In this document: piece by piece, positions 1 to 26,001 of the stretch
Layout: the number at the start of each line of letters is the position of its first letter
Numbering within the stretch: the first letter of the stretch is position 1
DNA from: Aromatoleum sp.
Lineage (GTDB): Bacteria; Pseudomonadota; Gammaproteobacteria; Burkholderiales; Casimicrobiaceae
Assembly: GCA_010365205.1 (NCBI GenBank)
Contig: JAAFGU010000001.1
Location: 12,672 to 41,651 of the forward strand
Direction: 5' to 3'
DNA length: 28,980 bases
Position numbers and translations under genes: made by a program
The notes under the pieces: model-generated
The model's database searches: none
The model's input: only the letters and a program-made list of their open reading frames with translations
Told to the model about the DNA's origin: nothing

Positions 1-1
1 G

Positions 2-2961: not shown

Positions 2962-2970
2962 GATCGCATC

Positions 2971-4287: not shown

Positions 4288-4291
4288 AGCG

Positions 4292-5257: not shown

Positions 5258-5274
5258 GCCGCGCCGGACCGACA

Positions 5275-8102: not shown

Positions 8103-8167
8103 GCCGGCGTTCCGTGATATGACCTGCACCTGACGAACCGAGACTCGCGGCGACAATCATCCATAGT

Positions 8168-9244
8168 ATGTCGGCAAAGCCACGCCTGATCGCGTTTTAC
8201 CTTCCGCAATTCTACCCGACCCCGGAGAACGACGAGTGGTGGGGCAAGGGATTCACGGAGTGGACCAACACCGCGAGGGCCAAGCCACTATTTCGTGGCC
8301 ACTACCAGCCGCACATTCCGGCCGACTTGGGATTTTATGACCTGCGCGTGCCTGAAACGCGCGAGGCGCAGGCGGACATGGCGAGAGCGTACGGCATCGA
8401 AGCGTTTTGCTATTACCATTACTGGTTCGGAGGTCGCCGCATTCTTGAACGGCCGTTTCAGGAAGTGACGTTGTCAGGACGCCCGGATTTCCCGTTTTGC
8501 GTCTGCTGGGCAAACCAGAGCTGGACGGGGATTTGGCACGGCGCGCCCGATCGTGTTCTGATCGAACAGACGTATCCCGGCGACGATGACTATCGCGCGC
8601 ATTTTGATTATCTCCTGCCGGCCTTCTCCGACCGGAGGTACGTGACCGTCGACGGGAACTCCCTGTTCGTCATTTACCGTCCTCACCAAATTCCAGACGT
8701 GCGGCGGGTCACCGATCTGTGGCGTGGACTTGCCATCAAGAACGGCCTCCCAGGACTGCATCTCGTGGGCGTGCATGACGATCCCCATTGGAATCCGGTC
8801 CAACACGGGTTCGACGCATCCACGTGTCAGCGGCTGCCGCAACGCCGGGGCTGGATTTCCAGACGACGACCGATGACGTGGGCGGGACAGAAGATTGCCG
8901 AACTGAGGGGCATTCCGACCGTTCATCGTTATCAGGACGTGCTCGCCGAATTGATGCCGGTCCAAGAGCCTGGTGTCGAGAGCTATCCGATGGTCGTTCA
9001 TGCGTGGGACAACTCCCCGCGTTCCGGTCGGGACGGGCTGGTTCTTCACGAATCTGATCCCGAATTGTTTCGTCAAGTGTTGAAACGTGCCTTCGAATTG
9101 CGGGTCGCCGCGCCACCCTCGCGCAAGATAGTGTTTCTGAAATCATGGAATGAATGGGCCGAGGGAAACCACCTGGAACCGGATCTGAAATTTGGCCATG
9201 GTTTCCTGCGTGTTGTCCGGGAAGAGTGGGAGCGGATGCAGTAA
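8168..9244 (+). CDS. WbsX-family glycosyltransferase / GH99-like domain protein
   Basis: Family signature IAFYLPQF..TPENDEWWGKGFTEWTN, LGFYDL, FCYYHYWF, CWANQSW, WDNSPR, SWNEWAEGNHLEPD. Confidence 0.88.
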   Translation: MSAKPRLIAFYLPQFYPTPENDEWWGKGFTEWTNTARAKPLFRGHYQPHIPADLGFYDLRVPETREAQADMARAYGIEAFCYYHYWFGGRRILERPFQEVTLSGRPDFPFCVCWANQSWTGIWHGAPDRVLIEQTYPGDDDYRAHFDYLLPAFSDRRYVTVDGNSLFVIYRPHQIPDVRRVTDLWRGLAIKNGLPGLHLVGVHDDPHWNPVQHGFDASTCQRLPQRRGWISRRRPMTWAGQKIAELRGIPTVHRYQDVLAELMPVQEPGVESYPMVVHAWDNSPRSGRDGLVLHESDPELFRQVLKRAFELRVAAPPSRKIVFLKSWNEWAEGNHLEPDLKFGHGFLRVVREEWERMQ

Positions 9245-9265
9245 GCATCTTCCGCCGGTCCGCGA

Positions 9266-9302
9266 GTAGCCGGATGCGGCATTTTCTTGCGCATCCGCCT
9301 AT
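9266..9302 (+). repeat. REP-like GTAG-initiated imperfect palindrome
   Basis: GTAG-C-CGGATGCG-gcattttcttg-CGCATCCG-C-CTAT in the intergenic gap; perfect 8-bp core stem. Single copy in this window. Confidence 0.4.
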
Positions 9303-9311
9303 GGACCAGGG

Positions 9312-9325
9312 CGTCATCGATGACG
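9312..9325. promoter_or_regulatory. Perfect 14-bp palindrome, candidate operator
   Basis: CGTCATCGATGACG is its own reverse complement, lies 38 bp upstream of the GTG at 9364 and is followed by AT-rich ATTATTACT. Confidence 0.3.
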
Positions 9326-9363
9326 ATTATTACTGACCGCGGAATTGTCGCGTTGCTGCCGTA

Positions 9364-10668
9364 GTGGCCGATATCAGCGCGCTTTCGCATCGACGGTTCT
9401 CGCGACTGTTGTTCGTGTCGCGCGCGTTCCCCGCCGATTTCGATCGCGCGACGTACGGCATCTACATGCGTATGCGGGTACTGCTCGAAGCGATCCGAAA
9501 TCTTGCGGACGACCTCGATATTCTTTTCTTCGTCGATCCGTCCGTTCCAATTTCGGAGGAATTACGTCGTCGCACCCAGGTTCGCATCGCGCAATCGTGG
9601 GGCGTCGAGGCCAACGTCTTTCTGGCGCACGAGCGGCCCGTAGCATCGGACGCCGGCTACTGGGCGAACTACGTCGCACCGGTGCTGGATTTCCGCCGCA
9701 ACCCCGACTACGCCGGCATGGCCGGACCGGAGCAGGTCGCGGCGGTGGAGGCGGCGCTCGATCGCGACATCTCGGCAATCGTCGTCCATCGGCTCGATGC
9801 AATGTGCCCGATTCTGACGATTAGAAGGAAGCTGCCGCCGATATTCCTCGATCTTGACGACATCGAGCATCGCAAGCTGGTTCGTGAACTGGCCCGGAAG
9901 CCTTTCTACCCGGGAAAACTTGCGTTGTTCCTCCGGGCGCCATCAGTCTTCCTGGCCGAACTTCGTGCGATTCGCCGCACTTGCTCGACCTTCGTCTGCT
10001 CGCAAAGCGATCGACGGTATCTGTCGCACTTCGTGCCATCGGATCGAATTGCGGAGGTGCCGAATGTAGCGACGTTTCCTCCGGATGCGCCGGCAGCGTC
10101 AGAGTCGGAAACCCTTCTCTTCCTCGGCTCCTACACTTACGCCGCCAATGTCGATGCCGCCGAGCATCTGGTGCGCGTGCTCTGGCCGCATATCAGGGCG
10201 TTGCGACCATCCGCCACGTTGCTGGTGGCCGGGCAACGGCCCGAACGGATTCCCAGTTACGCGGCGAAGCCGCCCGGCGTGGTTTTCACGGGGTTCGTCG
10301 ACGACCTGGCGGCGCTCTATGCGCGCGTCCGCGTGGTTTGCTGCCCGATTCGATACGGCGGCGGAACGCGGATCAAGATCATCGAGGCCGCCGGCTACGG
10401 CAGGCCGGTCGTGTCTACGCCGATCGGAGCCGAAGGGCTCGTGTTTACGCATCCGGACGAAATCGTTCTCGCACGTACCGACGACGAGTTCGCGGCATCG
10501 TGCGCCCGGCTGCTGGGCGACGCCGACCAGGCACGGGCGGTCGGTGTCGCGGCGCGCCGGCGTGCGCATTCAGCGTACGACCGCGACGCCGTGATCGCAG
10601 GCGTGCGCCGCATTGTGGAGGCCGGTCTGTCGACGACGGTCGACTCCGATGGGCGGGGTTTGGCGTGA
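9364..10668 (+). CDS. GT4 glycosyltransferase
   Basis: Motifs FLDLDDIEH, LLFLGSYTYAANVDA, CPIRYGGGTRIKIIEAAGYGRPVVSTPIGAEG. GTG start is approximate. Confidence 0.85.
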   Translation: MADISALSHRRFSRLLFVSRAFPADFDRATYGIYMRMRVLLEAIRNLADDLDILFFVDPSVPISEELRRRTQVRIAQSWGVEANVFLAHERPVASDAGYWANYVAPVLDFRRNPDYAGMAGPEQVAAVEAALDRDISAIVVHRLDAMCPILTIRRKLPPIFLDLDDIEHRKLVRELARKPFYPGKLALFLRAPSVFLAELRAIRRTCSTFVCSQSDRRYLSHFVPSDRIAEVPNVATFPPDAPAASESETLLFLGSYTYAANVDAAEHLVRVLWPHIRALRPSATLLVAGQRPERIPSYAAKPPGVVFTGFVDDLAALYARVRVVCCPIRYGGGTRIKIIEAAGYGRPVVSTPIGAEGLVFTHPDEIVLARTDDEFAASCARLLGDADQARAVGVAARRRAHSAYDRDAVIAGVRRIVEAGLSTTVDSDGRGLA

Positions 10669-11897
10669 CAGAGATTGGCGTGATGCGAGCTTCGGCCGCG
10701 AGCCAGCACGGCGTCGGGCTCCCGGCATGGTCGATCGTCCTGCCATGGGACCCCAGCCGGCCGGGCGGGGTCGACCTGGTGGCGCTGAACCTGTACCGTG
10801 AAATGCGCTCGCGCGGCGTGTATGAACCGCGGATGCTGATCGCGTCGTGGGAACATCCCGCGCCGCTCGACAGTGTCGACGACGGCCGGCCGACCACCCG
10901 GATCCGGTTGCGGTCGCCCGTTGGCGGTCGATCAGCGCTTGTGCATGCGCTGACATGGCTGCTGGCGCTACCTGCCGAACTTCCGCGCCTTGCCCGTCAC
11001 CTGCGTGCACACCGCGTCGCCGTCGTGAATGCGCATTTTCCCGGGCTGTCGGCGCTGCAATTCGTGTTGGTCAAGCGCTTCCTCTACCGCGATCTGCGCG
11101 TCGTCCTCTCCTTTCACGGACTCGATATCGGCGGCGCGGCGCGGACGCGCGGACTCGAGCGCTGGTTGTGGCGACGCCTGCTGCGCTCCGCCGACGCGCT
11201 GGTTGCCTGCTCGCACGATCTCGCCGGGCAGATCCGGGCCTTCGATCCCGGCGTGACGGCGAGGACGGTGACCATCCACAACGGCCTCGATACGGACGGC
11301 TTTCTCGCCGAAGCCGCGCCTGATGCTGTTCTGGATCCGCGCCTCGAGGGCCGCCGTTACATCCTCAGCGTTGCCGCGTACGAGCCCAAGAAGGGCCTGG
11401 ACGTGCTGATACGCGCGTTCGCGTCGCTGGTGCCGCGCGTCGAACCCGATGTCTTGCTCGTGCTGGTCGGCGTCGATCGCGGGATCCGCGCGGAGCTGCT
11501 GGCGCTCGCCGCGAACCTGGGTGTCGCCGATCGCGTCGTGTCGTTCACCGACGTCGCTCAAGCGCGCCTTCACCCCTTCTACCGGGCGGCGACCGCCTTC
11601 TGCCTGCCGTCGCGCCGCGAGCCGTTCGGGCTGGTACTGCTCGAGGCGGGCGCGTATTCGCTTCCGGTGGTGGCCTCGCGGGTGGGCGGGGTGCCGGAAA
11701 TCATTGCGCACGGCGAGACCGGACGGCTCGTGCCGCCCGAAGACCCGGAAGCGCTCGCCGCCGAGCTGCAGGACCTGCTGTCGCACCCCGCTGAGCGGGC
11801 CCGGCTGGGCGCGGCGCTGCATTCCCGCGTGCGTGCACGGTTCACCTGGGCTGCGGCGTACGAGCGCTACGTCGCGTTGCGGGCGCTCGAGCCCTGA
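10665..11897 (+). CDS. GT4 glycosyltransferase
   Basis: GTGA overlap with the previous gene (alternative ATG at 10683). Motifs VVNAHFPG, IHNGLD, SVAAYEPKKGLDVL, PSRREPFGLVLLEAGAYSLPVVASRVGGVPE. Confidence 0.88.
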   Translation: MTEIGVMRASAASQHGVGLPAWSIVLPWDPSRPGGVDLVALNLYREMRSRGVYEPRMLIASWEHPAPLDSVDDGRPTTRIRLRSPVGGRSALVHALTWLLALPAELPRLARHLRAHRVAVVNAHFPGLSALQFVLVKRFLYRDLRVVLSFHGLDIGGAARTRGLERWLWRRLLRSADALVACSHDLAGQIRAFDPGVTARTVTIHNGLDTDGFLAEAAPDAVLDPRLEGRRYILSVAAYEPKKGLDVLIRAFASLVPRVEPDVLLVLVGVDRGIRAELLALAANLGVADRVVSFTDVAQARLHPFYRAATAFCLPSRREPFGLVLLEAGAYSLPVVASRVGGVPEIIAHGETGRLVPPEDPEALAAELQDLLSHPAERARLGAALHSRVRARFTWAAAYERYVALRALEP

Positions 11898-11935
11898 CGC
11901 GCATCCCGCCGCGTCCGCCGTGCACCCGGAACCGC

Positions 11936-13105
11936 TCAAGCGGTGCGTAGAAAGTACACGGGTTTGTCGAACGCCTGCGCAATCACCACGCCCTTGAGGT
12001 TGGGCACGTATTGCATCCGGCTCATGATCGCCGTGTCGCCGCCGTTCACGCCCGCACCGTAGGCGACTGGAGGAGTGCCCGTCGTGGGCAGTTTCGAAAC
12101 GGCGAACGTCGTCGGATCGATCACGTAAATCTCTTCGAGGTCCGTGAAGTACAGGAACCTGTCGAGCACCGGATCGTGGACGAAGCCTGCGCCGGATGCG
12201 CGACGCAGTGGCAGCCCCGAAGCGGGGGCGTCACGATAGGCGGCCGGACGCTTGGACAGATCGAAGTAGCCGATCTGCGAGTCGCCCATTCCGGGGCGCG
12301 GTCCGATCCGCACCAGTCGACTTCGCAGCGGGTCGACGAGCGCGCACCCGCGGTCGACGTCGACCCATTCGGTATCGGCCAGGATGGCATCCGGTTGCCC
12401 GGTGGCGTTGTTCCAGAGCTGAATTAGGTGCGAGCTGGGGAAATAGACGTCGCCGGTAACGGGATGCTGCGCCACCCAGTTCCCCTCGTATCCGCCGGCC
12501 CTGGCGTACATGCGTCCGTAGTGTTCAGCGGGGTACCAGCGGCCTCCGGACGCCAGAGGGATCGCATCGACCTGCCAGCCCTTGCCCTTGTCCATCGGCC
12601 AAACCGGGCCGCAACCATAGACGATCAACTCGTCGCGCCCCGCGTTGTATTGCGGCGCGTAGTACGAGTGCCGTGACACCGGCGTTCCATCGGGGTTGTA
12701 GAACGCGCTGCTGTTCGATTGATTGGTCCGCACGCCGGAGGCATTTGACGGCTTCACGATGCAGAACCATCGCGGCGCGTCGGTTTCCAGGGCAAGGGCG
12801 CGGACCTCGTTGCCGCCCCAAGTCCGACCGCCACCGCCGAACGACATCAGCATGCTGTCGGACTTGCGAAGGGCACCGCCGCTGAACGTGAAGGTACCCG
12901 TTCGCGGATTCGTGCCGAAGCCAATGTCCCGCCAGTTCCGGTCGGTGAGGCCAGCCGCGACCAGGTCGGCCAGCACCGCCGGGCTGTCGATTTGCCGCGT
13001 ATTCGGAATCGCGACCCATTCGCCGACCTTCCTTCCCTGAAGCCATGCTGGAATCCGTGCGGCCGTTGCCGCGGGAAAGCTGAGCGGGGCAGAGGTGGAC
13101 TTGAT
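11936..13105 (-). CDS. Gene C: hypothetical beta-propeller-like protein, 389 aa if initiated at ATC 13105 (first canonical start is GTG 12976)
   Basis: Frame is open from 13105 to TGA 11936. Upstream of the GTG it reads IKSTSAPLSFPAATAARIPAWLQGRKVGEWVAIPNTRQIDSPA. The body has repeated aromatic/DP blade-like motifs (SFGGGGRTWGGNEV, LVDPLRSRL, VHDPVLDRF, YVIDPTTF, MQYVPNLKG). Start position is uncertain. Confidence 0.72.
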   Translation of the reverse strand: MKSTSAPLSFPAATAARIPAWLQGRKVGEWVAIPNTRQIDSPAVLADLVAAGLTDRNWRDIGFGTNPRTGTFTFSGGALRKSDSMLMSFGGGGRTWGGNEVRALALETDAPRWFCIVKPSNASGVRTNQSNSSAFYNPDGTPVSRHSYYAPQYNAGRDELIVYGCGPVWPMDKGKGWQVDAIPLASGGRWYPAEHYGRMYARAGGYEGNWVAQHPVTGDVYFPSSHLIQLWNNATGQPDAILADTEWVDVDRGCALVDPLRSRLVRIGPRPGMGDSQIGYFDLSKRPAAYRDAPASGLPLRRASGAGFVHDPVLDRFLYFTDLEEIYVIDPTTFAVSKLPTTGTPPVAYGAGVNGGDTAIMSRMQYVPNLKGVVIAQAFDKPVYFLRTA

Positions 13106-13111
13106 TTACGG
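13092..13111. repeat. 20-bp direct repeat, copy 1 (B/C junction)
   Basis: GAGGTGGACTTGATTTACGG versus GAGGTGGGCTTGATTTACGG at 20611-20630 (19/20 identical). Confidence 0.9.
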
Positions 13112-13276
13112 GCCTCCGTGACGGTAGAAGAGCAGGCCGGGGTTCGGCATGCCGATGCCGCCCGCCCAAAGCGACCAGTCGTCGGGCACCCACGGGCATG
13201 GCAACGCCAGCGGTGTTCCGAGGTGGCCGTCGATCATGGCGCAGTCGAACGCCGAACGCGGTGACGTCGATTTCAT
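13106..13276 (-). CDS. Mini-B: 56-aa protein or internally deleted remnant of gene B (absent from the ORF track)
   Basis: MKSTSPRSAFDCAMIDGHLGTPLALPCPWVPDDWSLWAGGIGMPNPGLLFYRHGGP*. The first half matches the N-terminus and the second half the C-terminus of 20625..21728. ATGA overlap with gene A1. Confidence 0.7.
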   Translation of the reverse strand: MKSTSPRSAFDCAMIDGHLGTPLALPCPWVPDDWSLWAGGIGMPNPGLLFYRHGGP

Positions 13277-13620
13277 TGCCCGTCATCCGCATCGATGATG
13301 ATGCCTGCGAGATCGCCGTGGCCGATGCGGGTCAGGATGCCTTCGCGGCTGAGCATCAGCACGCCGGCAATCGGGGCGCTCCGCGCGTTGAGCGAGAACG
13401 TCAACGGGTTGCCGTCCGGATGCGTCACGAATGTGCGCAGGTCGAGCGATGCTCCGATCGCGAGCGCCGCGCCCGAAAAGCCTGCCAACCAGGCGGCCTC
13501 GCGATCGGAGGTGAATGACGACGCGGGTTCCTTCGTATTCTTGGCGCCGACCCCGCACGCCGCCGAAGGGGCGATGAGCGCGCCTGCGCCTGCGATGATG
13601 AAATCACGGCGAGAGGTCAT
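13273..13620 (-). CDS. Gene A1: twin-arginine (Tat) signal protein with Ig/cadherin-like C-terminal domain, 115 aa
   Basis: MTSRRDFII followed by a hydrophobic stretch; GAGGA SD upstream; DLRTFVTHPDGNPLTFSL...EGIL...IIIDADDGQ. Paralog of 21725..22072. Confidence 0.8.
   Translation of the reverse strand: MTSRRDFIIAGAGALIAPSAACGVGAKNTKEPASSFTSDREAAWLAGFSGAALAIGASLDLRTFVTHPDGNPLTFSLNARSAPIAGVLMLSREGILTRIGHGDLAGIIIDADDGQ
13277..13299. repeat. 23-bp perfect direct repeat, copy 1 (A/B junction)
   Basis: TGCCCGTCATCCGCATCGATGAT is identical at 13277-13299 and 21729-21751. Confidence 0.9.
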
Positions 13621-13847
13621 TCCATTTTCCTCAGCGGAGTCCTCAATCTTTCACGGCGAGCAACGGCTCGTAGGCCGATGCTGCCTCGGTTCGCAACAGG
13701 GGCCGTTCGACCCCACGACTTGCAATCGAATGAATTCTAGACCAAATGCAATCGCGCTTCTGGAGGTTGCCGCACAGGCCGCGTGCGGCGAGATTTTGCA
13801 ATCATCGGGATTCAAGCCAGCATTGCCGCCCGGCGAGACCGCCATTC

Positions 13848-15356
13848 TCAGCCCCACCGCGTCAGGATGCGGCGTACGTCGTGCGCAATCGGGTGCCGCA
13901 CTGCGAAGACCATGGCCAGCCAGACCGGCAACGTCGTTGCCGCGGCGATGACGATGACCGCCCAGCCCGGGAGATGCTGGCCTCGAGACAGCACGGTCGC
14001 AAGGAGCGTTATGGCGATCGACGGAACGGCGATGGCCAGGCTCGGTCCGGCTGCCCGCAGAATGGCGCCAAGCGAAATGCCGAACACGCGGGAAAGGCTC
14101 ACCTGCGATGCAGCCACCGAGACGAGCGACATCGCGCTCATTGCAATCGTGACGGCGATGAGCCCGAACGGAGCGGCGACAATCAGGACGGCGACGCGGC
14201 AGATCAACGTGAAGAGCAGCACGTTGAAGGCGGGTCGAAGGCGGCCGAGTCCGGTATAGAAGGTGCTCCAGAGCAGATACGGGACGTAAAGCATGTTGCC
14301 CAGCACGATGATTCGGACGAGGTCAACCGACGGCAACCATTGGGAACCGTAAAGAAGCGCGATGAGTTCGGGCGCCAGGATGCCCACCGCAGCGAGCGCG
14401 GGCCACACCAGCGCGGTCAGATAGCGTACCGTGTTGCAGAATCCTTGACGCAGATCTCCGCCCGCCCGATTCTTTTCGGCGAAATACGGTGCGGCCACCG
14501 TGTAGACCGCCGAAGTGAAAACCCGGTAGACGATGTCCAGGATGGTGTTCGCCCGGCCGTAGAACCCGACCGCGACGAGCGAAATCACGCGGCCGATGAT
14601 CAGATCCGGGACGCCGCGCGCTACCTCGATCACGATGGCAGTGCCGCTCGACCACGCTCCGAAGCGAAATACCTCGCGCATGTGCCGCAGCGAGGGCCTC
14701 CAAGGCCAGTCGCGCGGACGGTACCGGAGAGCAAGCAGGATCGTCACGATGCTTCCGGCGAGAAGCCCCCACGCCATGCTCATGTAGCTGAATCCGGCAA
14801 ATGCGAGCATCACGGTCGTGGAAGAACCGACGATGGCGCTCGCGAGCCGGACAACCAATATCTTCCCGAAGTCCAGGTTGCGGCGGACCCACGCCATCGT
14901 TACGGTGCCGAACGGGATCAGCATGAAAGAGATCGCCAGTACGGACATGACCTTGGCGACGCCGGCTTCGCGATAAAAGATTGACGCCGGCCACGCAACG
15001 AGCAGAAGAACGGCCGCCAGCCCGAATCCGGTCACCATCGCAAGCGCGGAAGCTGTGCGGATCTTGTCGACGGTCAGGTCGCGCTCTTGGGCGATATAGT
15101 CGGCTACGCCGAAGTCCCGCAATACCTGGGCCACTGCCACGAGGACCATCGCGACGGAAAACGTCCCGAATTCCGCCGGCGTCAGCAGCCGCGCGACGAT
15201 CAGCGACGCAACGAACTGGATCAGCGTCGTGGCGTAGTTCTGAAGAAAGGAGAGCGCTAGCGCGCGACGGATTTTTGACAAGGGAACACGCTGCCCTGTG
15301 GGTGCCGCGATGATCCGCTCGGAGTCCTCCCCGGGCGGCGAAAGGTCCGGGAACAT
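13848..15356 (-). CDS. wzx: Wzx-type polysaccharide flippase (MOP/PST family)
   Basis: Many hydrophobic helices; IVARLLTPAEFG, PDLIIGR...VGFYGRA, LLYGSQWLPSV. Start may be a few codons downstream. Confidence 0.88.
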   Translation of the reverse strand: MFPDLSPPGEDSERIIAAPTGQRVPLSKIRRALALSFLQNYATTLIQFVASLIVARLLTPAEFGTFSVAMVLVAVAQVLRDFGVADYIAQERDLTVDKIRTASALAMVTGFGLAAVLLLVAWPASIFYREAGVAKVMSVLAISFMLIPFGTVTMAWVRRNLDFGKILVVRLASAIVGSSTTVMLAFAGFSYMSMAWGLLAGSIVTILLALRYRPRDWPWRPSLRHMREVFRFGAWSSGTAIVIEVARGVPDLIIGRVISLVAVGFYGRANTILDIVYRVFTSAVYTVAAPYFAEKNRAGGDLRQGFCNTVRYLTALVWPALAAVGILAPELIALLYGSQWLPSVDLVRIIVLGNMLYVPYLLWSTFYTGLGRLRPAFNVLLFTLICRVAVLIVAAPFGLIAVTIAMSAMSLVSVAASQVSLSRVFGISLGAILRAAGPSLAIAVPSIAITLLATVLSRGQHLPGWAVIVIAAATTLPVWLAMVFAVRHPIAHDVRRILTRWG

Positions 15357-15478
15357 GTACCGGACAAATTGCGCATTCTAACCGGGACCAGTCCTGCATT
15401 TGTCGTGCCGCACGCACTCCGTTCCGGCGTCCGTCGCTGCCAGCCGGTGGCGCGCAGCGTGAATCGTCTGCGATCAGA

Positions 15479-15487
15479 TGCTATAGT
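15479..15487 (+). promoter_or_regulatory. Possible extended -10 promoter element
   Basis: TGcTATAGT, 36 bp upstream of ATG 15524, in the divergent wzx/15524 intergenic region. Confidence 0.3.
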
Positions 15488-15523
15488 CGGGATCGTTTGG
15501 CGTATGCGGGATGAACGCGAGCG

Positions 15524-16693
15524 ATGATCGTCAAGAACCTGCGCCGCGAGCAATTGGGGGGGAACGTACGGCTGTCGGCTGACATCGTTCACGAGACGGT
15601 GCCGGCTCCGTTCGCCGTGATCTACTACGAGGTCGAGGAACGCCACGCCGACCTGCTGACCGACAGCTACGCCCCGTTCCTCATCGCAGCACTGGTGCCG
15701 GCAGTGTTCCACGGAGAGGCCCGGATTGTCGTCGAAGGTGACGTTGCGCCTCTGCTCGTCGCCGGACTGCGCTGCGTGATGGGCTGGCACCATCACTGGT
15801 ACGGCAAGCGGCATGCTCCGATTGCCATCGAGGCGGGAACTCGCGCGACCGCCCTGCCGCGGCGCCCATCGGCGGTATACCTTTCAGGCGGCATCGATTC
15901 GATGTTCACGCTTCGCCGCAACCAATTGGGATTTCCCGCAGGCCACGCGTGCCGGGCCGACTCCGCCATTCTGGTCAATGGTTTCGACGTGCGGCGTCCG
16001 GACGCCATTCGGATTGCGCGCGACCACGTGCAGCAGATCGCCGATGCGGCGACCTTGGAGTTGATCACCGTTTCGTCGAACGTGCCGCTGCTCGACGACG
16101 ACTACCCACTCTGGGCGAAGCAGTTCGGCGGTGCCGCCTTCTGCTCGGTGGCACATGCGCTGGCACCCGGTTTTCAGCGGGTCTGGTTCTCGGCGAACAG
16201 TCCGATCCCCGATCTGACCCCGTGGACCTTGCATCCGGCGACCGATCCCAACTATTCCAGCGCCGACGTCGAGATTCGTCAGGAGGGGCTTGAATTCACC
16301 TGCGTCGAGAAGGTCCGCCTGCTTGCGCACTGGGATGTCGCCCTTCGTCACGCCCGAGTGTGCACGCGTAACCCGGTCGATCGACTCAATTGCGGGCAGT
16401 GCGAGAAGTGCATTCGCACCCAATTGGCGTTTCTGCTCGCGGGGCGCCTCAGCGATGCGTCGGTGTTTCCGAACGATGACATCACGGTCGCACAGGTGCG
16501 AGCGGTGCGTATCCGCAACGAGGGTCAAGCGCGCGACAACCACGATCTCGTCAGGGAGCTGCGCGCCGCGGGGCGCGCCAATCTCGCCCGCGCAGTTGCG
16601 GCTAATCTTCGCGAATACGAAAAATGGGTCGCGTGGCGCGATGGCACCGGCCTCAGGCACCGCGCCGCGCGCGTGCTGGGATTCCGGCACTAA
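15524..16693 (+). CDS. Hypothetical PP-loop (QueC-like fold) protein, paralog 1
   Basis: YLSGGIDS nucleotide-binding loop; PWTLHPATDPNYSS; C-x9-C-x2-C-x2-C (CTRNPVDRLNCGQCEKC). Confidence 0.75.
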   Translation: MIVKNLRREQLGGNVRLSADIVHETVPAPFAVIYYEVEERHADLLTDSYAPFLIAALVPAVFHGEARIVVEGDVAPLLVAGLRCVMGWHHHWYGKRHAPIAIEAGTRATALPRRPSAVYLSGGIDSMFTLRRNQLGFPAGHACRADSAILVNGFDVRRPDAIRIARDHVQQIADAATLELITVSSNVPLLDDDYPLWAKQFGGAAFCSVAHALAPGFQRVWFSANSPIPDLTPWTLHPATDPNYSSADVEIRQEGLEFTCVEKVRLLAHWDVALRHARVCTRNPVDRLNCGQCEKCIRTQLAFLLAGRLSDASVFPNDDITVAQVRAVRIRNEGQARDNHDLVRELRAAGRANLARAVAANLREYEKWVAWRDGTGLRHRAARVLGFRH

Positions 16694-16702
16694 GGGGCGC
16701 CG

Positions 16703-17920
16703 ATGATCATCCGAAATTTTGACGTGACTTCGGTCGCAGGCGCGGCCCAGGTGAGCGCCGAAGTCGTATGGGAGGAGAGCGCCCGGGCATCGTTCGATCT
16801 CCACTTCCGGGTGCCCACGGAACACGCGGCGCTGATCTCCGCGAATGCCGACGCGTTTCTGACGGCGGCCCTTTATCCTGCGCGGCGCGCGGGTGAGCGG
16901 CGGGTTCGGGTCGAGGGCGAGGTCTGTCCTTACCTGGTGCGTGGTCTCGAAACCGCGCTCCATTGGCACTGGCACTGGTTCGGCGAGCGCTGCCCGATTG
17001 TCGCCATCGAGGCGCCCGCACGGACCCGACCGATTGCCACCCGCGACGCGGCCGGAGCGCTGCTTTTCTTCTCGGGCGGCGCCGATTGTATGCATACGCT
17101 TCGTCGCAACCGTCTGGAAGTGCCGATCAGTCACCCGGCTGCGATCAGCCACGGGCTGGTGATCGAAGGATTCGACATGCGACGGGGCAACACGTACGCG
17201 CGCTCGCTCGAAGCGTCGCGCCTGGTTGCGGCCGATGCGGATGTGGCGCTCGTGCCCGTAACCACGAACGTCCGCGACCTCGACCTCGACGACGAATTCT
17301 GGGATTGGGAGTTCCACGGCGCGGCGCTCGCATCGGTCGCACACGTGTTCGCGGGCGCGTTCGATCTCGCCTACATTGCGTCCGGAATCGAGATCGAGAG
17401 TCTTTTTCCATGGGGCTCGCATCCGCTGGTCGATCCGCTGTATTCGAGTTGCGATATCAAGGTCCGGCACGACAGCGCGGAGGTGCCGCGTCTGGAGAAG
17501 ATCAGGCTGCTCGCCGAGTGGCCCATCGCGCTCGACAATATGCGCGTCTGTTACCGCCACCCGCAGAATTCCCTGAATTGCGAGGAGTGCGAGAAATGCG
17601 TGCGCACGATGGTCGAACTGGTCGCCGTGGGCGCTCTCGAGCGCGCGGGCGCGTTTCGGCACACCGACATCACGGCGGAACTCGTCCGCGCGGTCCGGTT
17701 TTCCCTTCAGTATCACCGGATCCGTTGGGAAGAGATGATCCCCGACCTCGAACGTCGCGGCCGTTCTGACTTGGTGGCGGCCATTCGGGAAATCGTCACG
17801 CGTTTCCATCGCTGGGACGCGTGGAAGCACGAGCGGGACTGGAAAGGGCGGATCAAGCGCTTCGATCGCCGATTCCTCGGCGGCCGGCTTCTGCCTTATC
17901 TTCGGCGCCTGTACGCTTGA
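16703..17920 (+). CDS. Hypothetical PP-loop (QueC-like fold) protein, paralog 2
   Basis: FFSGGADC; PWGSHPLVDPLYSS; CYRHPQNSLNCEECEKC. Colinear with paralogs 1 and 3. Confidence 0.75.
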   Translation: MIIRNFDVTSVAGAAQVSAEVVWEESARASFDLHFRVPTEHAALISANADAFLTAALYPARRAGERRVRVEGEVCPYLVRGLETALHWHWHWFGERCPIVAIEAPARTRPIATRDAAGALLFFSGGADCMHTLRRNRLEVPISHPAAISHGLVIEGFDMRRGNTYARSLEASRLVAADADVALVPVTTNVRDLDLDDEFWDWEFHGAALASVAHVFAGAFDLAYIASGIEIESLFPWGSHPLVDPLYSSCDIKVRHDSAEVPRLEKIRLLAEWPIALDNMRVCYRHPQNSLNCEECEKCVRTMVELVAVGALERAGAFRHTDITAELVRAVRFSLQYHRIRWEEMIPDLERRGRSDLVAAIREIVTRFHRWDAWKHERDWKGRIKRFDRRFLGGRLLPYLRRLYA

Positions 17921-17925
17921 CGCGG

Positions 17926-19248
17926 ATGGCGCTGACGATGCCGGACGACAAGGGCGACGACAAAATGCCGCGCGACGATTCGCCGCCGGCACAGATTCGG
18001 AGCGCCTTTGGCGCCCGCGCCCGATCTCGCATTCTCGAAATCGTGCGCGTAGCGCTGCTCGCAGGCAATCGCCTGGCTCGGCGGGCGGGGGTCGTCCCGC
18101 GCGGCGTGCTCGTGATTCCGCCGGCGGCACCGGGGAGCCTGGGCGACGAGGCGATGGTGGTCGCGACCATCGACGCCATCCGCGCCAGGTTCGCCGGCCA
18201 TATCGGGTTGCTACGCTATCGGGGCGGTCTCGACTATCCGGTGCAGGTCGACGCAAGACTCGACCTGTCGCGGTATTTCCTCCAGGGCGGCGCGCGAGGC
18301 GACGAATTGCGCTTGCTGGCGGCGCTCTTTCGGTATCGCCACGTGGCGCTGCTCGGCGCCGACGTCCTCGATGGCTTCTATTCCGACGACGCCGTTCGCC
18401 TGCGGTTGCGACTTGTCGAGCTGGCGGCCCAGGCGGGCGCCTGCACCACTGTGCTCGGCTTCAGCCTCAATGCCCAACCTACGGCCGGTGCGGCGGCGCT
18501 GCTGCGCGCGCTGCCCGCATCGGTGCTCCTGTTGGCACGGGACCGCAAGTCGCAACAACGCCTTTCGTCGATCGTCGGCCGGCCAGTGGAGTGCGTCGCG
18601 GACACCGCCTTTCTGCTGGCCCCGGATACCACCGACCCGCGGGGCGATGAAATCGCGCGTTGGGCGACCGGGGTGCGTGCGCGCGGCGGCCGCGTGGTCG
18701 GCGTCAACCTGTCCGCGATCGCGATGGAGGCGGCGGGGCTGAAGCGCGCAGCGATCGTGCAGGTGGCGCACGATACACTCGAAAGGCTGGTCGCCGCCCG
18801 CCCGGCGACCGCGTTGTTGTTGATTCCGCACGACATGCGGGGCGACGCGTCCGACGTCAATCTTCTGCGTCAGCTCGCGGCGAGGCTCGAGCGTCCCGCC
18901 TTCGACGTGCGATTCCTCGTGCCGCCCCTGACGGCGCGACTGGTCAAGCGGGTGTGCGCCAGTGTCGACCTGGTCTGGACCGGCCGCATGCACGTTGCCA
19001 TTGCCGCCCTCGGGCAAGGTGTGCCCATCGTGGCTCACGAGTATCAGGGCAAGTTCGCGGGTCTGTTTGCCGATCTCGGGCTCGAGAACATGCTGTGGGA
19101 TACCGATCGCGAGCCGCTGCCGGCACCACTCACGGCCCTGCTTGTCGAGGCACTTGATCGCGCCGACGCGCTGAAGGCTTCGATCGCGCCGAAGCGGACG
19201 GCACTGACTGCGCGGGCGGCACGGAACATCGATCTGCTGCGCCTATGA
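17926..19248 (+). CDS. Polysaccharide pyruvyl transferase family protein
   Basis: GSLGDEAM, LLGADVLDG, LARDRKS, VADTAF, VGVN, IPHD, WTGRMHVAIAALGQGVP. Start uncertain among several nearby ATGs. Confidence 0.85.
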   Translation: MALTMPDDKGDDKMPRDDSPPAQIRSAFGARARSRILEIVRVALLAGNRLARRAGVVPRGVLVIPPAAPGSLGDEAMVVATIDAIRARFAGHIGLLRYRGGLDYPVQVDARLDLSRYFLQGGARGDELRLLAALFRYRHVALLGADVLDGFYSDDAVRLRLRLVELAAQAGACTTVLGFSLNAQPTAGAAALLRALPASVLLLARDRKSQQRLSSIVGRPVECVADTAFLLAPDTTDPRGDEIARWATGVRARGGRVVGVNLSAIAMEAAGLKRAAIVQVAHDTLERLVAARPATALLLIPHDMRGDASDVNLLRQLAARLERPAFDVRFLVPPLTARLVKRVCASVDLVWTGRMHVAIAALGQGVPIVAHEYQGKFAGLFADLGLENMLWDTDREPLPAPLTALLVEALDRADALKASIAPKRTALTARAARNIDLLRL

Positions 19249-20411
19249 TCCTGTCCGGGTTGCGAAGTTCGACCGTCGCCGGATGGGCGCGACTGAGCGC
19301 GGAGGTTCGCCACGAAGTGGCCTCCGCGCCACTCGCGTCGCTGTTCGTCGAGGTCCCGGAGCGGTTCGGCGACTGGTTGCATGAAGTCTACGATTGTTTC
19401 GCGATCGCCTGTTTCGCGCCAGCGACAATGCATCGGGAGACGCGGCTCGTCGTCGAGGGCGATGTCTGTCCGCTGCTGATCGACGGCTTGGGCGTCGCGA
19501 TGGCTTGGTACCGGCATTGGTATGGCCCGCGCTGGGCGCCGCTTGCGTTCGAAGCGGGGCGCCGCGCCGATGTGCTGCCGGCAAGCGGGCGTGTTGGTGC
19601 GATCTACTTTTCCTGCGGCGTCGATTCGCTGTACTCGTTGCGCAGGATCACGGCCGGAATGCCCTCCGCGCACTGGGGGGCGCCGCGGGCCGCGTTGTTC
19701 GTGATCGGTTACGACTTGCGCAAGCCGATGGCGATCGAGCGCGCCCTTGCGAACGCGCAGGCTGCGGCCGATTTGGCCGGCCTGACCCTCGTGCCGGTGC
19801 GATCGAACATACCGTCGCTCGACGACGACTACAACCTGTGGACCCTTCAGTTCGGCGGCCCGGGATTTGCCGCACTTGCCCATGCGCTGGGACGGGGAAT
19901 CGCACGTGCCTGGCTGGGAGCCGATTGCGACATTCCGAATCTGGTTCCTTGGTGCAACCATCCGGCAACGGCGCCCGAGTTCTCGTCGCACGACGTCGAA
20001 ATCCGGCAAGACGGGATCGAGGCCACACGGGCAGAGAAGGTGGGTGCCATTGCGGACTGGGACATCGCGCAACGCCATCTGCGCGTATGCACGAAAAATC
20101 CCGAGCACATGCTCAACTGCGGTCGCTGCGAAAAGTGCGTGCGTACGCGCCTGGAACTGCTGGCCTTCGGTAGTGCGGACGCGTTGCCGGCGTTCGGCGG
20201 GAGCACGCTCTCCGCCGCCGACGTGAACGCGATCGAGATACGGATGGATTCCATCTACTACGATGAGATCGTACCGCCCTTGCGTGCGCGCGGACGCGAG
20301 GATCTCATCGCCGCGATCGACGAGCGCAAGCGGGAATGGGCGCGGTACAAGCGCTGGCGCTCGGGCGGAACTCTGCGCGCGCGCGCCCGGCGGCTGGTCG
20401 GGGCCGGGTGA
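19245..20411 (+). CDS. Hypothetical PP-loop (QueC-like fold) protein, paralog 3
   Basis: ATGA overlap with the pyruvyl transferase; YFSCGVDS; PWCNHPATAPEFSS; CTKNPEHMLNCGRCEKC. Confidence 0.75.
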   Translation: MILSGLRSSTVAGWARLSAEVRHEVASAPLASLFVEVPERFGDWLHEVYDCFAIACFAPATMHRETRLVVEGDVCPLLIDGLGVAMAWYRHWYGPRWAPLAFEAGRRADVLPASGRVGAIYFSCGVDSLYSLRRITAGMPSAHWGAPRAALFVIGYDLRKPMAIERALANAQAAADLAGLTLVPVRSNIPSLDDDYNLWTLQFGGPGFAALAHALGRGIARAWLGADCDIPNLVPWCNHPATAPEFSSHDVEIRQDGIEATRAEKVGAIADWDIAQRHLRVCTKNPEHMLNCGRCEKCVRTRLELLAFGSADALPAFGGSTLSAADVNAIEIRMDSIYYDEIVPPLRARGREDLIAAIDERKREWARYKRWRSGGTLRARARRLVGAG

Positions 20412-20498
20412 GGATGGGCAAGTCCACGGATGAGCTCGCAGCGGGTGGCCGACGCCGGATGGTGTCCCGACGTCAGCGCGTCGTCCGCAGCGACTGGA

Positions 20499-20540
20499 CG
20501 CTAAGCCCGGCGCCGACGTGCGCCGGCACTGTACTTAGCG
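20499..20540. terminator. Composite inverted repeat between convergent genes (possible terminator or structured RNA)
   Basis: CGCTAAG-c-CCGGCGC-cgacgt-GCGCCGG-cactgta-CTTAGCG: two perfect 7-bp stems; no U-tract. Confidence 0.35.
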
Positions 20541-20603
20541 CCCGCGCCTCGCGCCAGAGGATCGCCGACATTGCGTAGAAGAGGTAGGCGAGATCAAAAT
20601 ACG

Positions 20604-20624
20604 CGGAGCTGAGGTGGGCTTGAT
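20604..20624 (-). pseudogene. Seven-codon stub of gene C (IKPTSAP)
   Basis: Directly follows the TAA of gene B2 in frame and matches IKSTSAP at 13105-13085. Similarity then ends and the frame stops at 20535-20537. Confidence 0.6.
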
Positions 20625-20630
20625 TTACGG
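20611..20630. repeat. 20-bp direct repeat, copy 2 (B/C junction)
   Basis: 19/20 identical to 13092-13111. Confidence 0.9.
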
Positions 20631-21728
20631 ACGTCGATGACGATAGAAGAGCAGATCGGGATTCGGCACGTCGACGCCGCCTGCCCACATCGACCAGTCG
20701 TTCACCGGATCGTAGACGGCCATTCGCGCTTGAAGCTTCCTGCCGTTGGGGGCATCGACGGCGGCGACGCGCCAGCGGTTTTCCGACGGCTGGTAGACGT
20801 AGAGCCGGCCGTCGTTGAGGTTGAGGTATTCGACGACGCGATGCCGGCTGTTGAACACGATGTGCGTGTGGTTCGCCGCCCGCGGGGTCTCGAGCGGCCC
20901 TGGCGGCGGCGCGCGCTCGGAAAATGCACCGCTGTCCATGTCGATTCGGATGAACAGCGCATCGATCGGGTCGATTGTGTAGACGCAACGGCCCGACAGA
21001 TCGATCGCGACATAGTCCTTCCAGATGCTGGGCTTGCGACCCCTGCTGTTGTCAGGAAGATTGACGGGCACGCGCCACGAGGGCGGCGACGTCGCAATGT
21101 CCAGCACCTGCATTTTCGGTCCCAGCCCGATCCGGCTTATGGTCCTTTTCACCGGATCGAGCCACGAGAACCACGAATCGGTGTAAGCGATGCCTGCGTC
21201 AACGCCCGCCCTCGACCACCGTCGCGGCGGCGGCGCGAACGGGTCGAACCACATCACCTCGTCATGGACGAAGTTCGCGTCGCTGGCACGCGCCGGTGTT
21301 TCGTTGGGTGGATTGTCCGTGGTGATATCCATCACGCCAGGAATCATCCAGAACCGGTGGAGCATGGCATCCCACTGCCAGCCGACGTAATCGGGGTGTT
21401 TGGGCTGCACCGAATTCCCGCCGAATCCGGCGTACGGGTACTCGAGCCGCCAACCCGCGTTCGGGTTCCGGGGATTCGCCATCCGCTCGGCGACGTCAAG
21501 CGACCAGGTTTCCTGGCGGTAGCTGCTGACCCATGGCTGCCCGCCGTAGTCGCCGCCGACGAAATAGATGCGCCCATTGTCCGGACAAAAGGCGCCCGTG
21601 ACATGTTTCATCCCCCCGCCCCACGGAGGCGCGTTCGGGGCGAACCCGCACGGCAGCGCGAGCATGGTTCCGAGTAGACCCTCCGGAGTCTGGCACGCGA
21701 AGGTCAACGGCGTTGAGGTTGCCTTCAC
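20625..21728 (-). CDS. Gene B2: hypothetical beta-propeller/kelch-like protein, 367 aa, no signal peptide
   Basis: GTGA overlap with gene A2. Blade-like motifs GRIYFVGGDYGG, WQWDAMLHRFW, MWFDPF, SWLDPVKR, YTIDPID, AVYDPVND. Both termini are homologous to mini-B. Confidence 0.78.
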   Translation of the reverse strand: MKATSTPLTFACQTPEGLLGTMLALPCGFAPNAPPWGGGMKHVTGAFCPDNGRIYFVGGDYGGQPWVSSYRQETWSLDVAERMANPRNPNAGWRLEYPYAGFGGNSVQPKHPDYVGWQWDAMLHRFWMIPGVMDITTDNPPNETPARASDANFVHDEVMWFDPFAPPPRRWSRAGVDAGIAYTDSWFSWLDPVKRTISRIGLGPKMQVLDIATSPPSWRVPVNLPDNSRGRKPSIWKDYVAIDLSGRCVYTIDPIDALFIRIDMDSGAFSERAPPPGPLETPRAANHTHIVFNSRHRVVEYLNLNDGRLYVYQPSENRWRVAAVDAPNGRKLQARMAVYDPVNDWSMWAGGVDVPNPDLLFYRHRRP

Positions 21729-22072
21729 TGCCCGTCATCCGCATCGATGATCACAGCGGCGATGTCGCAGGTCGCGATTCGGGCCAGGATGCCTTCAGGA
21801 TTGAGCGTAAGTCTGCCGACAGTAGGCGCACCATGCGCGTTGGGCGAAACGGTCAGTCGCTTCCCATCCGGGTGAATCGCGAACACGCGCAGATCGATCG
21901 AGGCCGCCACCGCGATGGCCGCGCCGCAGAGTGCGCGCCACCATACCGGATCGTGACGGAATGCACGCTGTCCCGAAGGTGGCGCCTCGGACGCGGTCGC
22001 GGCCCGGCATACGACCGATGGCGCCGCGAGAACTCCCGCACCCAGGACGATGAGATCGCGGCGAGACATCAT
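21725..22072 (-). CDS. Gene A2: twin-arginine (Tat) signal protein with Ig/cadherin-like C-terminal domain, 115 aa
   Basis: ATG 22072 preceded by GAAGGAG SD; MMSRRDLIV. Ungapped alignment with A1 gives 56/115 identical residues by hand count, ending IIDADDGQ. Confidence 0.8.
   Translation of the reverse strand: MMSRRDLIVLGAGVLAAPSVVCRAATASEAPPSGQRAFRHDPVWWRALCGAAIAVAASIDLRVFAIHPDGKRLTVSPNAHGAPTVGRLTLNPEGILARIATCDIAAVIIDADDGQ
21729..21751. repeat. 23-bp perfect direct repeat, copy 2 (A/B junction)
   Basis: Identical to 13277-13299. Confidence 0.9.
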
Positions 22073-24675: not shown

Positions 24676-26001
24676 ATGCGCGACTATGCGCTAACCGCCT
24701 TCATCTTCGGCTCGATCCCGTTCATTCTGTGGCGGCCATGGATCGGCGCGTTGATGTGGGTTTGGATCGGGCTGATGAATCCGCACCGCCTCACCTGGAA
24801 TTTCGCGTTCAACATGCCATTCGCCCAGGTCGTCGCGATCGCAACCCTGGTCGGTATGCTGTTCTCCGGCGAGAAATTCCGGATACCCTGGTCGCCGCCG
24901 GTCAAACTTTTATTCGCCTTGGTCGCGTGGATGTCGGTTAGCACGTATTTTGCCATCGATACGACAGACGCGTTCCCGCAATGGCAGAAGGTCATGAAGA
25001 TCCAGTTCATGACATTCATCGTCATGATGCTCATTGCCGACCGGAAGCGGCTCGAGGCACTGGTCTGGGTGGCCGCGCTATCGCTGGCGTTCTACGGCGT
25101 CAAGGGCGGGATCTACACGTTCACCGGTGGCGGCTCGAATCAAGTGCTCGGCCCCGAGGGGTCGTTCATCGAAGGCAACACCGAGATCGGCCTTGCGCTG
25201 GTGATGGCGCTGCCGCTGGTCCGGGTCATGCAGATGAGCGCCCAGCGACGAGCCGTTCGCTGGGCGCTCGGCTTGGCGATGCTCCTGACTGGACTCGCCA
25301 TTCTCGGGACACAGTCGCGGGGCGCGTTTCTGGGTGCTGCGGCGATGGCGATCATGCTATGGATCAAGAGCCGCAAGAAGGCGATGCTTTTCGTCATGTT
25401 GATCGCGGCCGTGCCGGCGCTGCTCGTCGTGATGCCGGACAGCTGGTTCACGCGAATGGAAGGCATCGGCAGCTACGAGCAGGACCGGTCGGCGATGGGA
25501 CGCCTCTATGCATGGGAATTCGCCTTCCGCATGGCCGTGAAGCACCCGCTCGTCGGCGGCGGTTTCGCGAGCTTCACGCCCGAGAACTACGCCGTATATG
25601 CGCCCGACCTGACCGAGGCCGTCAACGAGAAGGGGGCGGTGGCCGATGCGCACAGCGTCTACTTCCAGGTGCTGGGTCATCACGGATTCGTCGGCCTCGC
25701 GATCTTCCTCGCGCTGCTGGCGGCCATGTGGCAATCGGCGGCGCGCGTCATGCGGGCGACGCGCGCAAGGGAGGACTTGAGGTGGGCGTACGACACGGCG
25801 GCGATGTCGCAGGTAAGCCTGGTCGGGTTCATGGTCGCCGGCGCATTCCTCGGCCTCGCCTATTTCGACCTGCTGTACACGCTGCTGGCGATCATCGCCA
25901 TCACCGAGTCCCTGGTCCGCCGCGGACATGGGACCATTCCGGCGGTCGCGTCCACGGCCGACGCTGTCGGAGCGGCGCAGCAGCAACCGCTGCGACCGTA
26001 G
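24676..26001 (+). CDS. Putative O-glycosylation ligase / O-antigen ligase-like protein, exosortase-A-system type
   Basis: MRDYAL...RPWIGALMWVWIGLMNPHRLTW N-terminus, TQSRGAFLG, DRSAMGRL, HPLVGGGF, DAHSVYFQVLGHHGFVG. Confidence 0.88.
   Translation: MRDYALTAFIFGSIPFILWRPWIGALMWVWIGLMNPHRLTWNFAFNMPFAQVVAIATLVGMLFSGEKFRIPWSPPVKLLFALVAWMSVSTYFAIDTTDAFPQWQKVMKIQFMTFIVMMLIADRKRLEALVWVAALSLAFYGVKGGIYTFTGGGSNQVLGPEGSFIEGNTEIGLALVMALPLVRVMQMSAQRRAVRWALGLAMLLTGLAILGTQSRGAFLGAAAMAIMLWIKSRKKAMLFVMLIAAVPALLVVMPDSWFTRMEGIGSYEQDRSAMGRLYAWEFAFRMAVKHPLVGGGFASFTPENYAVYAPDLTEAVNEKGAVADAHSVYFQVLGHHGFVGLAIFLALLAAMWQSAARVMRATRAREDLRWAYDTAAMSQVSLVGFMVAGAFLGLAYFDLLYTLLAIIAITESLVRRGHGTIPAVASTADAVGAAQQQPLRP

Follow-up and report, generated by a model that had tools for sequence, protein, structure and literature searches.

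How can two incomplete copies of one small gene module serve a cell together, and how could two proteins of that module that have no export signal leave the cytoplasm? These questions are raised by a window of 28,980 nucleotides (nt) from contig JAAFGU010000001.1 of Aromatoleum sp. (the window is the whole stretch of DNA that was analysed, and all coordinates are window positions). Its minus strand holds two diverged copies of a unit of three genes, A, B and C, in which a small protein with a twin-arginine motif (A) is followed by two beta-propeller proteins (B and C). Copy 2 has an intact B and copy 1 an intact C, and a short remnant of B, here called miniB, lies between A and C in copy 1. 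The best overall explanation, to which we give about an even chance, is that the locus holds a duplicated form of a rare operon in which A is the carrier for twin-arginine translocation (Tat) of two Kelch-type propellers, with co-export of B and C and with a relay of ribosomes to C.

All five open reading frames (ORFs), A1, miniB and C in copy 1 and A2 and B in copy 2, lie on the minus strand where an earlier note on this DNA had placed them (Table 1), and its account of a full-length B in copy 2 and of a two-ended B remnant together with a full C in copy 1 was borne out. A1 and A2 have the same length, align without gaps and share 56 of 115 residues, again as had been described (BLASTP, E = 4e-37), and their starts are 8452 nt apart. 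In copy 2 the GTG start codon of B overlaps the TGA of A2; in copy 1 the ATG of miniB overlaps the TGA of A1, and the TAA of miniB abuts the ATC of C. Both types of junction, A/B and B/C, are conserved in architecture in the two copies, as claimed before, and in relatives as well. MiniB consists of residues 1-27 of B joined to roughly residues 343-367, the C-terminal ~25, and approximately 311 codons are gone in frame. A direct repeat (13084-13182 and 20603-20701) is 83% identical over 99 nt. Behind the TAA, both copies read ATC AAG xCC ACC TCx GCx CCG, and there the similarity ends. What had been called a 7-codon C stub in copy 2 stands as 22 nt of C-like sequence after the TAA of B; its frame is open for 29 codons. 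The anatomy also survives the objection of an assembly chimera, which the earlier note had raised: the probable source run, assembled separately in Logan, gives one contig over 11500-22500 with 0 differences, and a 240-nt contig from a different sediment study, of 2025, runs without gaps, and with five substitutions, across the whole of miniB and its junctions on either side. On this evidence a chimera is very unlikely, and this candidate was rejected.

The case for A as a carrier starts from the distribution of export signals. As the earlier note had recognized, a protein with an export signal adjoins the propellers: A has the only such signal in the module, a twin-arginine (RR) motif, and B and C have no signal peptide. 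The RR motif, of the S/T-R-R-x-F-L-K type and with a hydrophobic stretch, is present in all six A proteins that have a complete N terminus (SRRDFI, SRRDLI, SRRTFI, SRRNFI, SRRKFI, and DRRSFI). With [LVI][ASTVI][GAS]C, placed where the signal ends, as the lipobox criterion, a lipobox-like cysteine was seen in five of the seven A members (LAAC in L005 and P0043, LFAC in L006, SAAC in A1, and SVVC in A2). Homologues of B and C have Tat or Sec signals of their own. A rough screen by regular-expression motif and hydrophobicity gave RR-type N termini in 17 of 154 C-family proteins and Sec-like ones in 17 of 30 B-family proteins. P0048, which lies in an exopolysaccharide (EPS) locus, unites an RR signal, a B-like domain and a C-like domain in a single chain, and P0053, P0060, and P0061 are B-C fusions. 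P0004, which is C-like, brings an RR signal of its own and occupies the corresponding position in a syntenic EPS locus of Casimicrobiaceae. P0092 has an RR signal and a lipobox in one chain with a proline-rich linker and a C-like propeller, and to judge from its sequence it holds the N-terminal half of A in cis. Moreover, the stop of A and the start of B overlap as RTGA in six of six loci, and the N-terminal peptide K-x-T-S-x-x-L-x-F, which B and C have in common although they are otherwise very dissimilar, was found, within the sets examined, in split-type B and C only. Because split-type B and C are signal-less although their families are exported, and because of the fused homologues, the RTGA overlap and the shared peptide, we infer an adaptor role for A: it may carry and anchor B and C through Tat in trans, a proposal that in our judgement could go either way. 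Of 15 genomes from the same genus, 14 encode TatC.

In the proposed mechanism, B and C would fold in the cytoplasm, bind to A and cross the membrane via Tat as its passengers, in the hitchhiker mode. They would then stay tethered by the lipid anchor of A near the polysaccharide export machinery, where they might act on the polysaccharide. The peptide K-x-T-S-x-x-L-x-F would be the likeliest docking element, and it may supply a strand that is absent from the immunoglobulin (Ig)-like fold of A; its position and pattern are the basis for this idea. The domain of A has ~65 residues and is preceded in relatives by a proline-rich linker. Atlas leads for it were all He_PIG, Big_9 or cadherin-like Ig domains, with scores of 0.75-0.78 that count as leads only. 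A1 and A2 had no match to Ig-like family models up to an E value of 10, and a profile search of A against PDB sequences gave chance hits only. The A protein of L005 matched Cadherin_4 below the cut-off (E = 0.011), and a related domain in L014 matched He_PIG, also below the cut-off (E = 0.002), over profile positions 5-95 of 96. In L014 and L015 this Ig-like domain extends ~14 residues past the loop ...IIIDVDDG (..DTFSIDV), and all A proteins end at DDG. Because the domain continues there beyond the loop where A stops, the A polypeptide appears to be one strand short, the last of its Ig-like domain. A resembles the He_PIG and cadherin-like Ig domains (PF05345, PF17803, and PF17963) in that it can be aligned to this domain of L014 and L015, but it differs from them in stopping ~14 residues short of the profile end and in having no Pfam match. 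The two proteins L014 (15-1700) and L015 (98-2053) are 560-650 amino acids (aa) long, with an N-terminal, A-like, complete Ig-like domain that is followed by a large unannotated domain.

Several results weigh against A as a carrier. TatC was not found in this metagenome-assembled genome (MAG), which is 85% complete. The signal model PF10518 reached only 12.1 bits on A2 (E = 0.21; cut-off, 22.7) and gave nothing on A1, and A has no NCBIfam match, to TIGR01409 or to any other model, and no Pfam match above the cut-off. The A homologues P0044 and P0046 have no lipobox cysteine. A fold of A2 fused to B, computed from a block alignment, had a mean pLDDT (predicted local distance difference test) of 45.8 and was unusable. 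Finally, when the peptide of B or of C was appended to A, the gain in alignment against complete Ig-like domains was not significant (mostly p > 0.2).

B and C had been described as propellers, and the structural comparisons agree with this. Over residues 40-367, B reaches template modelling (TM) scores of 0.73-0.78 to Kelch clusters. The model of C, based on 65 sequences, has a mean pLDDT of 92.5 and matches the Kelch domain of LZTR1 with a Z score of 25.0 (284 residues), KLHDC3 with 24, and the bacterial mutarotase YjhT with 20.7; residues 1-19 of C form a low-confidence tail that bears K-S-T-S-A-P-L-S-F. The two families align with a hhalign probability of 95.7% (E = 1e-8, 319 columns), and on this evidence they are distant relatives, homologous from end to end. 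Neither protein has a Pfam or NCBIfam match above the cut-off; among the Pfam Kelch models, Kelch_6 reached 17.9 bits on B (cut-off, 25.3) and nothing matched C. More distant B homologues have Pfam Kelch domains (some PF01344 or PF07646) and Sec-type signals. Both B and C are predicted to be Kelch-type six-bladed beta-propellers. They share this fold with LZTR1, KLHDC3, and NanM/YjhT (2uvk), but the identity is 10-16% and no common active-site or ligand-site pattern was found, so that function is not transferable. The nearest predicted-structure neighbours of C include phage proteins (TM score, 0.87) and PEP-CTERM proteins. Some of its structural neighbours carry the PEP-CTERM motif; for B and C themselves, PF07589 gave no match. 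Together, L014, L015 and the phage neighbours of C point to a link with phage or with depolymerase-type polysaccharide recognition.

The second part of the explanation concerns the start of C. The C peptide begins at ATC in both copies of the window and in L006, at CTG overlapping the TGA of B in L004 and L005, and at TTG with the same overlap in L003. In five loci a GGAG(G) motif is present 6-9 nt upstream of this start, within the His-Gly-Gly codons of B. The first ATG, GTG or TTG in the window C is codon 44, and a start there would remove the nearly invariant residues P19, W21, and W30. The frame of C relative to that of B varies among loci (TTGA, CTGA, and in L006 the frame of B runs on), and this speaks for initiation or re-initiation at C and against readthrough. 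Since the weak start abuts the upstream stop, C probably relies for its translation on ribosomes that have come to the end of the preceding ORF. In copy 1 that ORF is miniB, and ribosomes ending at its TAA would start C at the ATC behind GGAGG. As miniB retains the coupled start of B, the Shine-Dalgarno motif and the stop, it would maintain such a relay, and it may have been kept as an intact 56-codon frame in order to pass ribosomes on to C. As C is a conserved frame that has no canonical start, it makes translational coupling and initiation at AUC or CUG directly testable.

The history of the two copies was reconstructed from a maximum likelihood (ML) tree of the A domain in which the Ig-like domains of L014 and L015 set the root. 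A1 is sister to A2 plus P0045 with a support of 94/94, and because the tree joins them at this support a within-lineage duplication is indicated. The two proteins also have derived traits in common, namely, equal length and loss of the proline-rich linker. Their synonymous divergence (dS) is ~0.96, and the ratio of nonsynonymous to synonymous change (dN/dS) is 0.41 overall and 0.31 within the domain. The branch lengths are very unequal, with 0.88 for the A2/P0045 stem and 0.083 for A1, and a comparison with seven outgroup A proteins gives 20 lineage-specific residues for A2 and 3 for A1. These comparisons point to an old duplication with strongly asymmetric divergence. By this account, a segment with A, B and 22 nt from the start of C was copied in this lineage to a new place at a distance of 8.45 kb. 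The unit behind the flippase gene wzx, which is the original, then lost the ~311 codons of B in frame while it kept C. The new copy holds the sole intact B, and the genome still encodes one B and one C, in separate transcription units. The earlier note had spoken of reciprocal loss. For B in copy 1 the loss is demonstrated, but for a loss of C from copy 2 there is no corresponding trace: a search of copy 2 for anything left of the 3' part of C or of the DNA downstream of it, and of both copies for upstream similarity, gave nothing above shuffled controls. Because no such remnant exists, the duplicated segment may have ended 22 nt into C, and copy 2 perhaps never held more of it.

The strongest rival is a plain duplication followed by neutral decay, in which the extra copy is redundant, miniB is a dead fragment that is in frame by chance, A2 is drifting, and A1 serves both B and C, like the single A of the relatives, with neither specialization nor a relay. 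We regard it as somewhat unlikely. That each copy has specialized, as the earlier note proposed, is doubtful: A1 is conservative, and A2, with its 20 changes against 3 and its degenerate lipobox SVVC, looks relaxed rather than specialized. The only A2 orthologue that was found, P0045 (a single contig of 958 nt in ENA, 88% identical in the domain), has SCRD in place of SRRD and is missing 15 residues of the Ig-like domain; a B-like ORF still follows it, overlapping by 4 nt. These differences may reflect the decay of A2 in a related strain or else a mistake in the contig. An A2 that is redundant, and is perhaps retained through the coupled start of B, fits the data as well as a specialized one. 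MiniB itself does not have the invariant Leu-8 of the N-terminal peptide. In a related strain it carries two changes, both nonsynonymous, next to T4I in C, and these changes fit weak constraint. The in-frame deletion would have arisen by luck with a chance of 1 in 3. These observations speak for plain decay. On the other side, at a dS of ~1 both A copies and miniB are still open, and for the ends of miniB the dN/dS is ~0.33, in the range of the A proteins. The miniB ends are identical to the window B at 32 of 52 positions and to other B proteins at 26-30 of 52, and they share exclusive residues with the window B; miniB has 8 specific changes against 5 in B, and this difference in rate is not significant. 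MiniB is intact in the second sample as well, and B and C each rely on an upstream ORF for a coupled start. The most specific form of our own proposal would combine all of its parts: A would be an Ig-short Tat lipoprotein carrier, the propellers would donate an N-terminal strand to it, be exported folded and be lipid tethered, and the relic ORFs (miniB and perhaps A2) would be kept solely as translational relays to genes behind them whose starts are weak or noncanonical. This full combination is tentative, and we think it a little less probable than plain decay.

Another possibility is that A works on its own, as an exported Ig-like lipoprotein that, for example, binds polysaccharide, that B and C are cytoplasmic or take another route, and that the linkage of the genes reflects co-regulation. 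The failed fold of the A2-B fusion and the nonsignificant test of the peptide extension count in favour of such a scheme, and about three-quarters of the C-family representatives have no recognizable signal, although many of these are fragments or multidomain proteins and the motif screen is rough. An independent A would leave unexplained that stand-alone homologues of B and C bear Tat or Sec signals of their own, that P0048 and P0092 unite the signal with the propellers, that A and B overlap in all six loci, and that the domain of A ends before its last strand. For these reasons we hold this scheme to be distinctly improbable.

The weakest of the rivals is recoding, in which ribosomes would either shift frame by -1 where A and B overlap or read through the TAA before C. 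The product would be a fused A-B or B-C protein, and the split would be confined to the DNA: miniB and C in the window (as B and its C-like stretch) share a frame with one TAA between them, natural B-C fusions exist elsewhere, and a fusion would complete the Ig-like domain of A in cis, but there is no conserved slippery heptamer before the A stop in six loci, a Shine-Dalgarno motif stands at start-codon distance from the ATC, and the differing C/B frames among relatives rule out TAA-ATC readthrough as a conserved mechanism, so that we see hardly any chance for it.

If A is indeed a carrier for B and C, it can be compared with several known systems. The nearest known mechanism is Tat hitchhiking, with examples in the small and large subunits of [NiFe] hydrogenases and in DmsAB, and the known cases are almost entirely cofactor-bearing redox enzymes. 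As in those complexes, one subunit here has the twin-arginine signal and its signal-less partners would be exported folded. A parallel in composition is PaoABC of E. coli, a ternary Tat hitchhiker complex (PMC4273604) and thus three-component like A, B and C. The present complex is putative, and it would differ in that the proteins carried along are Kelch propellers without a cofactor, encoded among polysaccharide genes, and in that the carrier is a lipoprotein-like adaptor of 115 aa and not a catalytic subunit. If the proposal is true, a lipoprotein adaptor that ferries plain beta-propellers would widen the range of Tat passengers and carriers, and the N-terminal peptide would be a compact natural docking tag. 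The single-chain homologues P0048, P0092, and P0004 are like the module in having the same propeller families, the same kind of EPS locus and the Tat signal, anchor and propeller parts. They are unlike it in that everything is in cis, with no A-type Ig-like domain and no K-x-T-S-x-x-L-x-F, and they are 40-54% identical to the window B and C. In chaperone-usher pili, an incomplete Ig-like fold is completed by a strand from another polypeptide (donor-strand complementation), and the short Ig fold of A would likewise be completed by a strand from a partner. There is, however, no homology with these pili and no chaperone or usher, and here the idea is hypothetical, without statistical support.

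At the level of the operon, the locus recalls duplication-degeneration-complementation, a general evolutionary model. As in that model, each copy is without a different part, and both are now needed for the full set of genes. The difference is that whole genes within an operon are concerned and that for copy 2 no loss of C can be demonstrated. Seen in this light, the locus would be a clean case in nature of a duplicated operon whose copies have lost complementary parts. The ingredients, which are Tat hitchhiking, Kelch propellers, Ig-like adaptors, and complementary degeneration, are all known, and it is their combination that is undescribed. A literature search found no paper that links Kelch proteins with exosortase or PEP-CTERM.

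The A family is rare. A profile search of 5.8 billion proteins yielded 9 clusters, including the two of the window itself. A was not found among 200 genomes of the same family, 46 of them of the same genus, and among GTDB representatives there was one close locus only, in a Betaproteobacteria MAG. JGI metagenomes scanned with B patterns gave nothing. A single intact A-B-C unit is present in L003, L005, L006, and two further contigs, which fits the claim that the window holds a duplicated A-B-C unit. In L006 the order is Wzx-A-B-C, with a flippase 65% identical to that of the window (13848-15356), and because relatives carry this single arrangement copy 1 stands at the ancestral site. In L004, genes for a PEP-CTERM protein and for EPS export come after B-C. 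Within the same bacterial family, C-like genes reach no more than 43% identity to C, and the metagenomic relatives are 71-78% identical; because C is closer to the latter, the A-B-C block was probably acquired horizontally. Approximately 1.2 kb upstream of A-B-C in L005 (7056-8434), there are a reverse transcriptase (RVT_1) gene and a Y1 transposase gene, neighbours that hint at mobility of the block.

Table 1. Positions of the two module copies and of adjoining genes in the window
Feature	Position	Strand	Description
A1	13273..13620	-	115 aa; SRRDFI twin-arginine motif, lipobox-like SAAC, Ig-like (He_PIG/cadherin-like) domain ending ...IIDADDGQ; behind Wzx
A2	21725..22072	-	115 aa; SRRDLI, degenerate lipobox SVVC, same truncated Ig-like domain as A1
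B	20625..21728	-	367 aa; predicted Kelch-type beta-propeller without signal peptide; N-terminal peptide K-A-T-S-T-P-L-T-F
miniB	13106..13276	-	56-aa in-frame B remnant; contains the Shine-Dalgarno motif for C
Shine-Dalgarno-like GGAGG	13113..13117	-	Within the last miniB codons, 7 nt upstream of the ATC of C
C	11936..13105	-	389 codons; predicted Kelch-type six-bladed beta-propeller without signal peptide; noncanonical ATC start
C stub	20603..20624	-	22 nt after the TAA of B, ATC AAG CCC ACC TCA GCT CCG ..., matching the start of C
Wzx-type MOP flippase	13848..15356	-	Directly upstream of A1, same strand
Inter-copy block	15524..20411	+	Three paralogous genes and a pyruvyl transferase; context, outside the module

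The window is an EPS locus of the exosortase-A type, which confirms that the module is embedded in an EPS locus. TIGR03097, an XrtA-associated O-ligase-like protein, matches at 24676-26001 with 484.9 bits (cut-off, 188.1), and a match to Exosortase_EpsH with 238.8 bits lies on the same contig ~5 kb before the window. TIGR03108 stays below the cut-off on a gene that is cut off by the window edge. Other EPS genes in the window encode an XrtA-type amidotransferase, several GT4 enzymes (glycosyltransferases), WbsX, a pyruvyl transferase, a heparinase II/III-like protein and a deacetylase. Exosortase-type EPS loci of this kind, in which the tiny A family sits, hold largely uncharacterized accessory proteins. 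A Casimicrobiaceae genome (L017, GCA_039934675.1) corresponds over its positions 1-8927 to the window at 2971-13105, and its gene row is syntenic with that of the window from 2971 to 11897. The shared row comprises UDP-sugar dehydrogenase, transglutaminase-like, GT4, Asn-synthase-like, WbsX, glycosyltransferase, and GT4 genes. In L017 it ends in the same-strand C-like propeller P0004 with its own RR signal; in the window, C is on the opposite strand behind A1.

Some further genes of the locus may be mentioned. Between the two A copies, beside the pyruvyl transferase gene, three paralogous genes on the plus strand (15524-16693, 16703-17920, and 19245-20411) encode proteins of ~390-405 aa that share blocks (repeat families D1 and D4), including a CGxCxKC motif. 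They have no Pfam or NCBIfam match. The protein encoded at 4292-5257 on the plus strand, within the row of EPS genes, has a transglutaminase core (Pfam, E = 3.4e-6), and its position is conserved in L017. The plus-strand gene at 27973-28827, with which the EPS locus ends, matches Antibiotic_NAT (E = 1.8e-52) and stays below the NCBIfam AAC(3) cut-offs; a sugar N-acetyltransferase is more likely than a resistance gene. The GC content of the region of the WbsX-type glycosyltransferase (8001-10000) is 0.59, versus 0.65-0.70 elsewhere, and because of this dip a mosaic origin of the EPS locus is suggested.

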